Assembly (NCBI GenBank): GCA_002742935.1
Contig: PDON01000066.1
Coordinates: forward strand, 6,185 to 70,184
DNA length: 64,000 bases
Direction of reading: 5' to 3'
Origin: Candidatus Cloacimonadota bacterium
GTDB lineage: Bacteria > UBA4055
Under the pieces are notes generated by a model. That model worked only from the letters and a program-made list of their open reading frames with translations. It was not told the origin of the DNA and did not search any database. The position numbers and the translations under genes were made by a program. Position 1 is the first letter of the stretch. The number at the start of each line of letters is the position of its first letter. This document shows positions 52,011-64,000 of this stretch, piece after piece.

Positions 52011-52165
52011 TCAAATACTCCAAAAATTTAAGTTCGGCAGAATATATGGATATAGGGGTAAGTAGTCAATAGTTAATTTAGATAAAATAGTATAGTATAG
52101 AATCAGCTTTCAAAAAGCCATAAATAGCAGTTCAATTCAAGCCCATTTTACATAACTTAGAAGTT

Positions 52166-52195
52166 TTGCTATTTTTAAGTAGAACCTACTATAAT
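52166..52195 (+). promoter_or_regulatory. putative sigma-70 promoter embedded in a conserved 43-nt box
   Basis: TTGCTA (52166-52171), 18 nt spacer, TATAAT (52190-52195); 64 nt upstream of ATG 52259. Confidence 0.45.
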
Positions 52196-53948: not shown

Positions 53949-53975
53949 TCATTCATACATTACACTTTAATAATG

Positions 53976-54008
53976 AAAAGGTGAGTTTTAAACCTCACCT
54001 TTTTTTTA
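53976..54008 (+). terminator. rho-independent terminator
   Basis: AAAGGTGAG pairs with CTCACCTTT, followed by a run of Ts. Confidence 0.7.
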
Positions 54009-54041
54009 TTTTATATTATAGATGGAGTTAGAACGAGGCTG

Positions 54042-54176
54042 CCTTAAAAAGTCAGACTGGCTAGAAACGAGTAGTACAAGGAATTGATTTTTATGCGATT
54101 TGAGCCTAGAGATACTAGGTGATCCATTGCAAAAAAAATTGATGACGCAGTAATGCGAAGTTGACAGGAAGTCTGG
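54042..54176. repeat. intergenic repeat family, copy A (with hairpin module)
   Basis: Hand alignment to 59641-59753 gives roughly 80% identity outside a ~24-nt insert (GCCTAGAGATACTAGGT hairpin) that is shared with copy C. Confidence 0.75.
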
Positions 54177-54322
54177 AACGGAGTGGTTTCAATAAACAGC
54201 TTTGAAAGTATAAACCAAAATTGATAAATTATGAACAGAACAATCAATAAAAAGTAAAAAACAGGAGATACTTACAATAAAGGTAATCTTTTGATGAATA
54301 ATTTACAAAAAATCAAATCAGA

Positions 54323-57540: not shown

Positions 57541-57715
57541 GATTGTAGGAGGTGGAAGACGGGAGACCTAAGACGGAAGGTGTATCATTCGAGTAGCCTC
57601 AGGGTAGGGAGTGCCGATAATAGTAAAATTATTCATATCAGTTAACTCTGTCGAAACAGAAAGAATCTTCCCGCCAAAGAAGGAGCTAAAGGAAACCTCC
57701 ACCATCAATAATGGT
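57541..57715. other. GC-rich, purine-skewed non-coding island of unknown nature
   Basis: Runs GGAGGTGGAAGACGGGAGACC, GACGGAAGGTG and CAGGGTAGGGAGTGCCG sit inside a 655-nt AT-rich gap. Possible closing helix 57551-57559 with 57666-57675, and GGAGGT (57548-57553) with ACCTCC (57695-57700). Confidence 0.3.
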
Positions 57716-57945
57716 AAGCAACTCAGGTTAAACTAAAAATCTTTATCAAGTTATTCAGCAATCTATCTAGACACTTTTGAAGCTATTTTGCCATAAATTA
57801 GAAGCTTTCTATTTTTAAGCAGACCATAATTTATTAGGAAAACTCATACAGTTGGAAAATAATACTTTTTATTACTCATTAATTCACTATATTTATCTCT
57901 ATAAATAAAGTTAAAAAACAAAATTTTAATAAAAAGTAGAGATTC

Positions 57946-59562: not shown

Positions 59563-59603
59563 CAGAACTGCTTTGAACATAAATTTTATAAAAGTTACTA
59601 TTA

Positions 59604-59634
59604 AAAAAAGCCCTGTTTTACACAGGGCTTTTTG
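59604..59634. terminator. rho-independent terminator (bidirectional shape)
   Basis: AAGCCCTGT pairs with ACAGGGCTT, 5-nt loop. As before and Ts after. Confidence 0.8.
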
Positions 59635-59640
59635 AAGTTA

Positions 59641-59753
59641 CCTTAAAAGATCAGACCGGCTATAAACGAGCAGTACAAAGTACTAAACTTTTATGCAATC
59701 CATCGCAGAAAAAATCGATGAAGAAGTAATGCGAAATTGGTAGAACAGTCTGA
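59641..59753. repeat. intergenic repeat family, copy B (lacks hairpin module)
   Basis: See copy A. Begins 7 nt after the helicase terminator and ends 20 nt before the stop of the minus-strand ferritin-like gene. Confidence 0.75.
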
Positions 59754-59772: not shown

Positions 59773-60276
59773 CTAGAAAGCCCAGAAACTATTATCATTC
59801 CAAACCTTGTTCTTTAGTTCCTCACTAATATCTTCAAGATCTTTTAAGTGATCACCTTCCCAATTTGCAAGATAGGTATAGAACTCCTTCTCTTTCTCAT
59901 CTTCACATTCAGCAGCTCTTTTTGAGTATAGCTCTATAGCCTTCTTCTCAAAATTTATAGCAGCGTCTATTGCAGCAGATTCAAAGCTTGCAGCTTCAAT
60001 TTTACCAATCATATCTTCATCAAGAACATGATCTGCAATCTCTGTTGTTTTAGCTCTTTCCAAAACAGATGAATCAAACTCACCGGTTTTACTTAAACTG
60101 TTGTAGAGATCAGTCAAAAATTTTAAGTGGACAACCTCTTCCTCTGCCATTTCATTAAAGAACTCTTTAACCTTTGGATCTTTTACTTGACATGCAATTG
60201 TTCTAAAAAACTCCATGCCTCTCTTCTCTAATAGAATCCCCTGTTTAAGGGTTATTAAAGTCTTACTCTCTTCCAT
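59773..60276 (-). CDS. ferritin-like / rubrerythrin-type diiron four-helix-bundle protein
   Basis: Two E...ExxH pairs (EKRGMEFF...EEEVVHL and FEKKAIELY...WEGDHL); 167 aa. Confidence 0.7.
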   Translation of the reverse strand: MEESKTLITLKQGILLEKRGMEFFRTIACQVKDPKVKEFFNEMAEEEVVHLKFLTDLYNSLSKTGEFDSSVLERAKTTEIADHVLDEDMIGKIEAASFESAAIDAAINFEKKAIELYSKRAAECEDEKEKEFYTYLANWEGDHLKDLEDISEELKNKVWNDNSFWAF

Positions 60277-62526: not shown

Positions 62527-62552
62527 AGGTTCGATTTTTTCGAACCTTTTTT
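62527..62552 (+). terminator. rho-independent terminator
   Basis: AGGTTCGA ttttt TCGAACCT followed by TTTTT. Confidence 0.8.
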
Positions 62553-62710
62553 ATTTTGTATAATCTGTATAAATTTAAAACAACCTGAATTCGACATAAC
62601 TATTTATCCAGCATTTAGCTTAATAAATATAATATTACATACAATTGTATTGATCAGCTTGGGAAAGGTTTTAAGATTTTTTTAAAATCTATAAACTTTT
62701 TTGGGCACTT

Positions 62711-62832
62711 CTTTTGTAGTCAAAAGAAGCAAATAGTACAAGAAACTGTTTTTTATATGATCCATAGCCTAGAATTACTAGGTAACTTGAATATAAAAGT
62801 GATGATGCAGTAATGCAAAGTTTATTGACAGT
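62711..62832. repeat. intergenic repeat family, copy C (with hairpin module; overlaps a gene's stop codon)
   Basis: Shares TAGTACAAGAAACTGTTTTTTAT, GCCTAGAATTACTAGGT and GATGATGCAGTAATGCAAAGTT with copy A. Its right end covers the last codons and stop (62822-62824) of the minus-strand gene. Confidence 0.6.
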
Positions 62833-64000
62833 GTAATCTTAGCTCATCTAAACCCACAATTATAAAATCATCTACATTTCTATCCTTTTTATCAAAGGCT
62901 ATACCCATGCAGAAAACCTCTCTTTTATCGGATAAGTATGGCTCGTAATACTTTTTCTCTTTAATCTGTTTTATAGCAGATGAGGCACTACTCATCTTAA
63001 ACTCCATAATGTAAACAAAATCCTTTGTTTCAACTACGGCATCAATTATACCATTATTTGTTTTTTGTTCAACCTTAATATTTGTTCCAATAAACATTAA
63101 AGCTAAATAGATAACAGTATGGTAATAACTCTCATATTTTCCACTAACTAAATTGTTCGGTATAGAAGCAAAAATTGATCTCAAAGTATCAATAAATATT
63201 TCCATATTATTTGAATCTAAGGAGTTTAATAAGCTCTGTGCTTTTTGAGAATATAATCCACTCTGAATATCCGAAAATTCAGCACCTAAAAGTAGATATA
63301 AAGATTGTCTTATCTCTAAATTAGGGTATCCTAAATTGTAGGATAGAGAGAAATTATGGGGATTTATTATCTTTTCTTTAATAGTTAAATATCCTGCTTG
63401 GAATAGTAGAACGGTTATATCAATATTATTGATTTCGTAAGAGTCTAAGGCTGTTTCGGGAACATTTATAAAAGTATCATAATCCTTAATATTTAAATCT
63501 TTTTCTCTTATCTGCTTAACTAAAAATGTAGCAGTACCAGATTTAAACCAAAAATTTTTAAACTCTCTATCATTTAAAAAACTTATTACAGAGTATGGAT
63601 TATAAACAAAGGTTTTACCGTCCCAAGAGTATCCATTGTACCATAGTTTAATAAGTTCCATTAAACCTTTTCTATCGAGATTAAACTCATCCTCAATCTC
63701 TCTTAAATACTCTCCATAATTGTCTTCAATCTCTTTTTCGCTATATCCTGTAATATCCGCATATTGTTTTTTTATTGTTATATCCGTTAAATTATTCAGC
63801 TCGCTAAAAAACGATACTCTACTAAACTTTGAAACACCTGTTATAAAGAGAAGTTTTATATGTTTATCCAAATCCTTAACAACAGAGTAGAATTTTTTTA
63901 ATACTTCCCTATTTATTTCAGCTGTTTCTATATCAGTTATATAATCAATAATTGGTTTATCATACTCATCTATCAAAATAGCAACGGGGTTTTTCTCGCC
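62822..64000 (-). CDS. AAA-ATPase-like + PD-(D/E)XK nuclease-family protein (partial; N-terminus beyond the window end)
   Basis: The frame stays open past 63976 to the window edge (...GEKNPVAILIDEYDKPI...). The C-terminal IIDAVVETKDFVYIMEFK resembles a PD-(D/E)XK core. Confidence 0.7.
   Translation of the reverse strand, partial: GEKNPVAILIDEYDKPIIDYITDIETAEINREVLKKFYSVVKDLDKHIKLLFITGVSKFSRVSFFSELNNLTDITIKKQYADITGYSEKEIEDNYGEYLREIEDEFNLDRKGLMELIKLWYNGYSWDGKTFVYNPYSVISFLNDREFKNFWFKSGTATFLVKQIREKDLNIKDYDTFINVPETALDSYEINNIDITVLLFQAGYLTIKEKIINPHNFSLSYNLGYPNLEIRQSLYLLLGAEFSDIQSGLYSQKAQSLLNSLDSNNMEIFIDTLRSIFASIPNNLVSGKYESYYHTVIYLALMFIGTNIKVEQKTNNGIIDAVVETKDFVYIMEFKMSSASSAIKQIKEKKYYEPYLSDKREVFCMGIAFDKKDRNVDDFIIVGLDELRLHCQ

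Follow-up and report, generated by a model that had tools for sequence, protein, structure and literature searches.

A MITE-like mobile repeat family in a Candidatus Cloacimonadota lineage, probably homing to stem-loops

Bacterial MITEs are poorly studied. To our knowledge, a single precedent, IS1630, reported in 1999, has been described for insertion that targets stem-loops and copies them in full, and its mechanism is not known to have been worked out. IS1630 is an IS30-family element of Mycoplasma fermentans that inserts at variable inverted repeats or terminator-like stem-loops and duplicates the whole repeat, which is 16-26 bp long; the duplication is kept by some copies only, and the terminal repeats are heterogeneous (PMC3317919; Calcutt 1999, PMC94219). 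The repeat family described here is similar in that it targets variable inverted repeats and duplicates three different stem-loops whole. On the other hand, IS1630 is autonomous, ~1.2-1.4 kb long and equipped with an IS30-type transposase, while the present element measures 142 bp, is non-coding and has no transposase in the examined loci. There is no sequence similarity between the two, and the hosts belong to different phyla. By comparison of these features, IS1630 appears to be the closest precedent, and it is the only described parallel that was found.

Two further groups of small repeats resemble the element in other respects. ERIC (IRU) of Enterobacteria and Correia (CREE) of Neisseria are imperfect palindromes of ~120-200 bp with intergenic or 3' positions that form a long stem-loop when transcribed; they have internal indel variants and may contain sites for IHF as well as targets of RNase III or RNase E (PMC10969869). 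The present element is like them in its size, its rod-shaped fold, its intergenic or 3' placement and its internal-deletion variants, but it has no sequence homology to them and differs in its marked polarity and in a left repeat that is subterminal. Correia elements make a TA duplication, and we know of no description of long hairpin duplications for ERIC. BOX, RUP and SPRITE of Streptococcus pneumoniae are small repeats that cluster and insert into one another, as the present element does, although they are unrelated to it in sequence and host. SPRITE resembles a rho-independent terminator, whereas the present element is not itself a compact terminator and instead adjoins and copies terminators.

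Three copies of the element, A, B and C, are found in the window, i.e., the whole stretch of 64,000 nt of Candidatus Cloacimonadota DNA that was analysed. The copies and the stem-loops to their left are as follows.

53975-54004, plus strand: intrinsic terminator of the HesB-like gene (terminator scan), 30 nt left of copy A
54035-54176, plus strand: copy A, 142 nt, nearly intact; 88.7% identity to the consensus of young copies; covariance score 153 bits, E 3e-34
59603-59633, plus strand: stem-loop of terminator type (A-run, GCCCTGT/ACAGGGC, T-run), flush with the left end of copy B; left flank -16.3 kcal/mol
59634-59753, plus strand: copy B, 120 nt, older, without the apical CCTAG cassette and with a degraded inner helix; 92.9 bits, 82.7% identity to the consensus
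62663-62701, plus strand: AT-rich stem-loop abutting the left end of copy C; left flank -9.3 kcal/mol, beyond the 5th percentile of control 40-mers
62703-62836, plus strand: copy C, the oldest of the three in the window, with 6 nt missing from its 5' arm; 91.6 bits, 76.7% identity to the consensus

The limits of the copies are those of a covariance model and reach slightly beyond the earlier ones (54042-54176, 59641-59753 and 62711-62832). An earlier reading of the letters alone, termed here the sequence-only reading, had described three related repeats in the same orientation, and this is confirmed by the covariance model and by motif counts. The window has three occurrences of the 3' block TGATGANGNAGTAATGCNAANTT, always on the plus strand, against 0.02 expected, and three of the 5' block AGTACAA...TTTTAT, against 0.03 expected. 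A repeat finder run on the window lists the same family as D2. Copies A and B had been judged roughly 80% identical, a fair estimate given the measured 77% (88/114 aligned columns); A and C share 67% and B and C 59%. The three copies diverge from the young consensus by 11-23%, and comparison of their flanks gives no recognisable target duplication at A, B or C.

The genetic context is also as it had been described. According to the list of open reading frames and the terminator scan, the copies lie near plus-strand terminators (of the HesB-like gene, the helicase and rpmB), with B and C beyond minus-strand genes. Copy B is directly 3' of the minus-strand rubrerythrin gene (59773-60276). Copy C lies downstream of rpmB and its terminator at 62527-62547 and directly 3' of a minus-strand PD-(D/E)XK gene (62822-63976), and the TAA stop (62822-62824) of this PD-(D/E)XK/AAA-ATPase-like gene sits in the right arm of copy C. 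A Logan contig (L034, run SRR6011892) that is 100% identical to the window breaks at 54094 and 62713, within copies A and C, since a multi-copy repeat breaks the assembly graph.

Copy number beyond the window, to which the sequence-only reading had pointed as a check, was followed up with a pattern scan, a covariance model (R1) and nhmmer. These give 14 full-length copies and at least five fragments, at no fewer than eight loci, in ~162 kb of DNA from one organism. Eleven of the full-length copies and at least five fragments are on contigs other than that of the window, and all of the additional copies come from the same organism. Their sources are the Candidatus Cloacimonadota MAG GCA_002748965.1, to which the window belongs (contig PDTR01000156.1), and the metagenomes from which that MAG was built; the copies are named below after their loci (L043, L061a and so on). 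In metagenome contigs the strict 3' motif finds seven true copies, all in PDWJ01, and the other 42 matches are coding or due to chance. At least one of the copy-bearing PDWJ01 contigs is also present in the window's own MAG, and another comes from the same samples, outside the bin. Scans with the 3' motif of 185,579 species genomes (22 matches) and of viral contigs (10 matches) yielded coding or chance matches throughout, and no blastn match to the element was obtained in plasmid and phage collections. The length of the element ranges from 119 to 143 bp across copies. The covariance model scores the copies at 75-166 bits on the forward strand and at no more than 41 bits on the reverse strand, which makes the element polar. 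No reading frame is conserved across the 14 copies, the best being one minus-strand frame that is open in 5/14, so that a peptide-coding reading was rejected.

The element is built of a variable left extension of 16-17 nt that ends in an A-run, followed by a core of 125 nt. The parts of copy A are listed here.

54035-54051, plus strand: left extension, variable (GAGGCTGCCTTAAAAAG); in alignments it looks like a second direct copy of the left arm plus the A-run
54052-54064, plus strand: left arm of the basal helix (TCAGACTGGCTAG), 17 nt inside the left end; helix 1, pairs with 54163-54176
54077-54089 (element positions 43-55), minus strand: AATCAATTCCTTG, after an A-tract; matches the E. coli IHF consensus WATCAANNNNTTR; most conserved block
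54105-54120, plus strand: apical hairpin cassette CCTAG-AGATA-CTAGG; at ~62768-62783 in copy C, deleted in copy B
54163-54176, plus strand: right arm of the basal helix (GACAGGAAGTCTGG), right terminus of the element

The left module is of the GAGATTGCC type, and the left extension is absent or replaced in L046 and L061b. The ends had been expected to pair, and they do so over up to 12 bp in intact copies. At the right, this 12-bp inverted repeat, TCAGACTGCCTA/TAGGCAGTCTGA, reaches the terminus of the element, whereas at the left most copies have 16-17 nt outside it. The sequence of the true left terminus differs between copies, the right end is conserved, and the interior of the element is better conserved than its ends. 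The absence of the apical cassette from B, L081 and L061b fits exactly a deletion between the GAT.. direct repeats flanking the CCTAG hairpin; an interpretation of the cassette as an optional RNA stem was rejected in favour of such a deletion between short direct repeats. In 9/14 copies the same element position matches the IHF consensus of E. coli. The motif is expected by chance ~11 times per 64 kb, or ~0.02 times per element, and it was noticed post hoc, and this IHF-like match would be only a lead. At 54046-54051 of the window (copy A), the minus strand reads the basal helix and then CUUUUU, an arrangement present in 11/14 copies. A stem followed by CUUUUU has the layout of a terminator, and here it faces convergent genes (rubrerythrin at copy B; holA, RF3, CoaBC and others elsewhere).

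Long direct duplications flank the three most intact copies. In L043 the duplication is a perfect one of 23 nt (AGGGTAGTATTTTTACTACCCTT) and comprises a whole stem-loop. L061a has a perfect duplication of 19 nt (GGCATAAGATTTTATGCCT), found also in a second metagenome assembly, PDWI01, and L051/L091 has one of 29 nt with three differences, located 33 nt downstream of tRNA-Lys. Each of these long duplicated stretches is a different stem-loop. The duplications begin directly at the ends of the element, on the right just after GTCTGA. Clean long duplications are confined to these copies (3/14); L081 has an 8-nt flanking repeat (TTTAAATG), and the young copy L050 shows at best a degenerate duplication. 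In addition, L067b is nested in an older 5' fragment of the element, and L046 and L061b adjoin partial copies. Based on the stem-loop duplications at the youngest copies and on the copies that insert into or beside one another, the repeat family is a mobile, MITE-like element. The sequence-only reading had named a MITE-like element as one of its two options, and this option is supported by the extra copies, the target duplications and the nested or adjacent copies.

Strong hairpins are enriched in the left flanks of the copies, 6/14 of which reach or pass the 5th percentile of controls (Mann-Whitney p=0.0025). In 10/14 copies the left neighbour is a co-oriented gene or tRNA whose 3' end faces the element. 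No empty orthologous site was found; relatives of the flanking helicase reach 67% identity at most, and the loci of two relatives are non-syntenic and without a copy. Insertion polymorphism was likewise absent among three assemblies, the second and third assemblies of the same population carrying the same filled sites. Between PDWJ01 and PDWI01, an unrelated 27-nt indel (TTTGAGATCTCTAAATCACTATTAAAC) just after a PTS EIIC gene (L093 5092-5118 versus L094) is the sole difference over 5.4 kb. The ~162 kb of examined loci contain no transposase domain and no additional match to the end motifs of the element. Around the copies the GC skew has no consistent pattern; it follows the strand of the genes, with no tie to the direction of replication.

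Several other repeats and rearrangements were observed near the copies. The two copies at L089 7767 and 9142 share ~90 nt of right flank and a DUF5128 paralogue, which indicates that the pair arose by segmental duplication and not by transposition. Here, L089 6569-9283 is a tandem duplication of a unit made of the element, a leader of ~90 nt and a DUF5128 gene, with one copy of the element ~75-80 nt upstream of the start codon of each paralogue, and in both copies the basal helix is of the rare CAGAG/CUCUG type. A near-perfect palindrome of 36 nt (AATTGTAGAGCCGTTGCnnGCAACGGCTCTACAATT) is present at L046 621-656 and at L061 2934-2969 and 5971-6000, and in weaker form at L089 4618-4654; it abuts an end of the element in three places. 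In L046 the element seems to lie inside the right arm of this palindrome; here it lacks the left extension, and the duplication is 2 nt long. At L081 7526-7528 the first bases of the element complete the TGA stop of an upstream 215-aa ORF, which would be ~21 codons longer without the insert. An intergenic G-rich module with GGAAGAC(C/G)-like repeats (GTGGAAGACCGAAGACGGAAGACCGAAGGTG) was seen at 57552-57582 of the window, at L046 534-564 and at L061 5379-5406. It is near copies of the element in L046 and L061, and in the window it overlaps a purine-rich island upstream of the helicase gene. Two 43-nt boxes in the window (52144-52186 and 57783-57825, containing ..TTAGAAGCTTTCTATTTTTAAGCAGACC..), upstream of the GT4 glycosyltransferase and helicase genes, loosely resemble the left extension and the start of the left arm; as relatives of the element they go unreported by nhmmer at E<1.

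RNAalifold folds the whole core into a single rod, formed by the basal helix, a middle helix of 11-15 bp rich in A and U, and the apical CCTAG hairpin. Pairing in the rod holds in 94.7% of cells (12 copies), compared with 33-47% when the partners are slid. Changes on both sides were observed at seven pairs, a number reached by 3/500 shuffles, and the covariation score was reached by 0/500 shuffles, in an alignment that was fitted to the model and so somewhat favours structure. Clear double changes are, for the inner helix, UGC/GCA to UAC/GUA and to UGU/ACA; the basal helix has CAGAC.../...GUCUG replaced by CAGAG.../...CUCUG. Helix 6, the apical cassette, is paired in 9/9 of the copies that bear it. 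Based on the conserved rod and its compensatory changes, it is suggested that movement requires the element to fold, or its two halves to stay complementary. The sequence-only reading had proposed a GNRA-type hairpin, GCA-GUAA-UGC, with one compensatory change and a break in copy B. This hairpin does pair in 91.7% of cells, with one double change, and is broken in B, but it is not the best-supported pairing. A rival pairing of GAGYAGUAC with GUAAUGC holds in 97.2% of cells and survives in B and L067b, where the GNRA hairpin is broken. The same reading had held that a lack of covariation together with transposon-like ends would leave a plain MITE. Hallmarks of a transposon are indeed present, but the covariation is real, so that the element may still have an RNA or single-stranded form.

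Known classes of RNA and of recombination site were also compared with the copies. The repeats had not been recognised as a named RNA family, in agreement with an Rfam search that gave no match at gathering in the window and, at E<=10, nothing near the copies except terminator-driven noise. A riboswitch was rejected for want of an Rfam match at gathering. The motif UGAUGA...CUGA raised the possibilities of a hammerhead, a k-turn or a C/D box, all of which were rejected; the core misfits a hammerhead by eye, and the best Rfam match on a young copy, to archaeal C/D sR2, scores 14.9 bits against a threshold of 42. An independent sRNA gene was rejected because the flanks are wholly different between copies and the databases searched contain no syntenic relatives. 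Integron attC sites were dismissed on account of the ends, which are TCAGAC/GTCTGA and not RYYYAAC...GTTRRRY, of the neighbours, which are housekeeping genes on both strands, and of the duplications, which would be unexpected. A PATE derived from IS200/IS605 does not agree with the long duplications, the varying left-flank bases (..CTT, ..CCT, ..ATT, ..AAC) or the presence of one rod instead of two end hairpins.

The explanation that we favour, with a probability of about 0.72, treats A, B and C as old copies, probably no longer able to move, of a ~142-bp mobile element (MITE) that is specific to this lineage, non-coding and non-autonomous and that homes to stem-loops and duplicates the whole hairpin. 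The element is placed directly 3' of a stem-loop that was there before it, usually the terminator of a co-oriented gene or tRNA, with a preferred polarity, and the youngest copies have the whole stem-loop of 19-29 bp on both sides. For the insertion step we infer a transposase supplied in trans that would attack both strands on either side of the palindrome. In the simplest form, an ordinary short stagger would be made across the base of an extruded cruciform, and gap repair would then copy the entire hairpin. After insertion the copies would decay. Copy A would have kept its structure, and slippage between direct repeats would have removed the apical hairpin from B; C would have lost part of its 5' arm and been co-opted to end the neighbouring gene. 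Some observations count against this explanation. Neither a full-length parent element nor a transposase with these ends was found in the ~162 kb. The small number of copies with clean long duplications and the failure to find an empty site or an insertion polymorphism also speak against it. In a typical MITE the conserved part is the termini bound by the transposase, while here the left terminus is variable, the left repeat is subterminal and the interior is more conserved than the ends. Also, the strong strand asymmetry of the fold is not predicted by a mechanism that acts on terminal repeats in duplex DNA.

In a different and improbable reading, movement or selection is single-stranded. The plus strand, as ssDNA or RNA, would fold into the rod and be joined to extruded hairpins by a structure-specific enzyme (HUH, a tyrosine-type recombinase or an RT-linked pathway) and not by a DDE transposase. 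The mean folding energy is -37.0 kcal/mol for the plus strand and -24.8 kcal/mol for the minus strand, an average advantage of 12 kcal/mol for the plus strand, which is favoured in 12/14 copies (Wilcoxon p=0.0019). G-U oppositions occupy 45 cells and A-C oppositions 11, but counted as independent events the G-U columns are few (13 against 9 for A-C), and strand-biased C-to-T mutation could mimic the asymmetry. These values hint that a single-stranded plus form matters, although inheritance of wobble pairs or a strand bias of mutation could account for them as well. The compensatory changes are not limited to the terminal repeats and occur in the internal helices too, the polarity is fixed relative to the hairpin and T-run, the left junction varies next to a conserved right end, and the interior is conserved above the termini, all of which would agree with a single-stranded substrate. 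On the other hand, long direct target duplications are the mark of staggered cuts in duplex DNA, and known ssDNA transposons (IS200/IS605) and attC recombination leave no target duplications. A conserved left target tetranucleotide is missing, the GC skew has no link to the direction of replication, and a candidate enzyme was not seen in the examined loci. We regard it as unlikely that the family is a strand-specific folded unit that is read as a structure and joined to extruded hairpins (terminators, palindromes and its own copies) by a mechanism undescribed for miniature elements, one which would copy the target hairpin and leave a variable left junction.

An equally improbable alternative is that the host keeps the repeats as a functional RNA or DNA module whose mobility is secondary or past. 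Such a module might be a rod in the 3' UTR to which RNase III or RNase E is recruited, a terminator serving convergent genes (minus-strand rod plus CUUUUU) or a binding site for a protein of the IHF/HU type. The structure is conserved with covariation, as would be expected of such a module, and ERIC and Correia alter mRNA processing (PMC10969869). The core has invariant blocks, one of which is the block matching WATCAANNNNTTR in 9/14 copies, but the chance level of ~2% and the post hoc choice of that motif weaken the argument. An A-run beside the basal helix in 11/14 copies places a minus-strand stem and U5 downstream of convergent genes at B, L043, L046, L050 and L051. Against such a module, the neighbours share no gene class (helicase, rubrerythrin, rpmB, holA, RF3, CoaBC, PNPOx, tRNA-Lys, DUF5128) and no promoter is conserved across copies. 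Pairing and the IHF-like motif are gone from the older copies, B and C among them, which is what the absence of host selection would predict. The sequence-only reading had further suggested that copy A is transcribed into a minus-strand sRNA of ~200 nt from its own promoter at 54199-54227, ending at the 53976-54008 hairpin, and this we consider very improbable. A sigma-70-like TTCATA-17-TATACT is indeed present (minus strand 54235-54207, 9/12), and the terminator at 53975-54004 is symmetric enough to serve both directions. However, the window contains 48 promoter-like matches against 48.1 from shuffles, which deprives the match at copy A of weight, and the site lies in unique flanking DNA with no counterpart at the other 13 copies. 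The strand asymmetry also argues against a minus-strand RNA, as the minus strand folds far worse than the plus strand and scores at most 41 bits in the covariance model against 75-166 bits for the plus strand.

The family is new and restricted to its lineage; it represents an already known kind of selfish DNA, and a minus-strand sRNA gene with its own promoter is not supported. It adds a miniature, structured example to a rare mode of insertion. As a multi-copy element of 142 bp with clear polarity and a covarying fold, it offers a compact substrate for studying how transposition reads the shape of DNA and not its sequence. In the genomes of this uncultured lineage, the repeats break assemblies, as in the Logan contig that ends in copies A and C, remodel the ends of genes, as with the stop codons at C and L081, and double terminators. 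For the annotation of Cloacimonadota MAGs this means that the repeats should be masked, and that sRNAs or small ORFs should not be called there.
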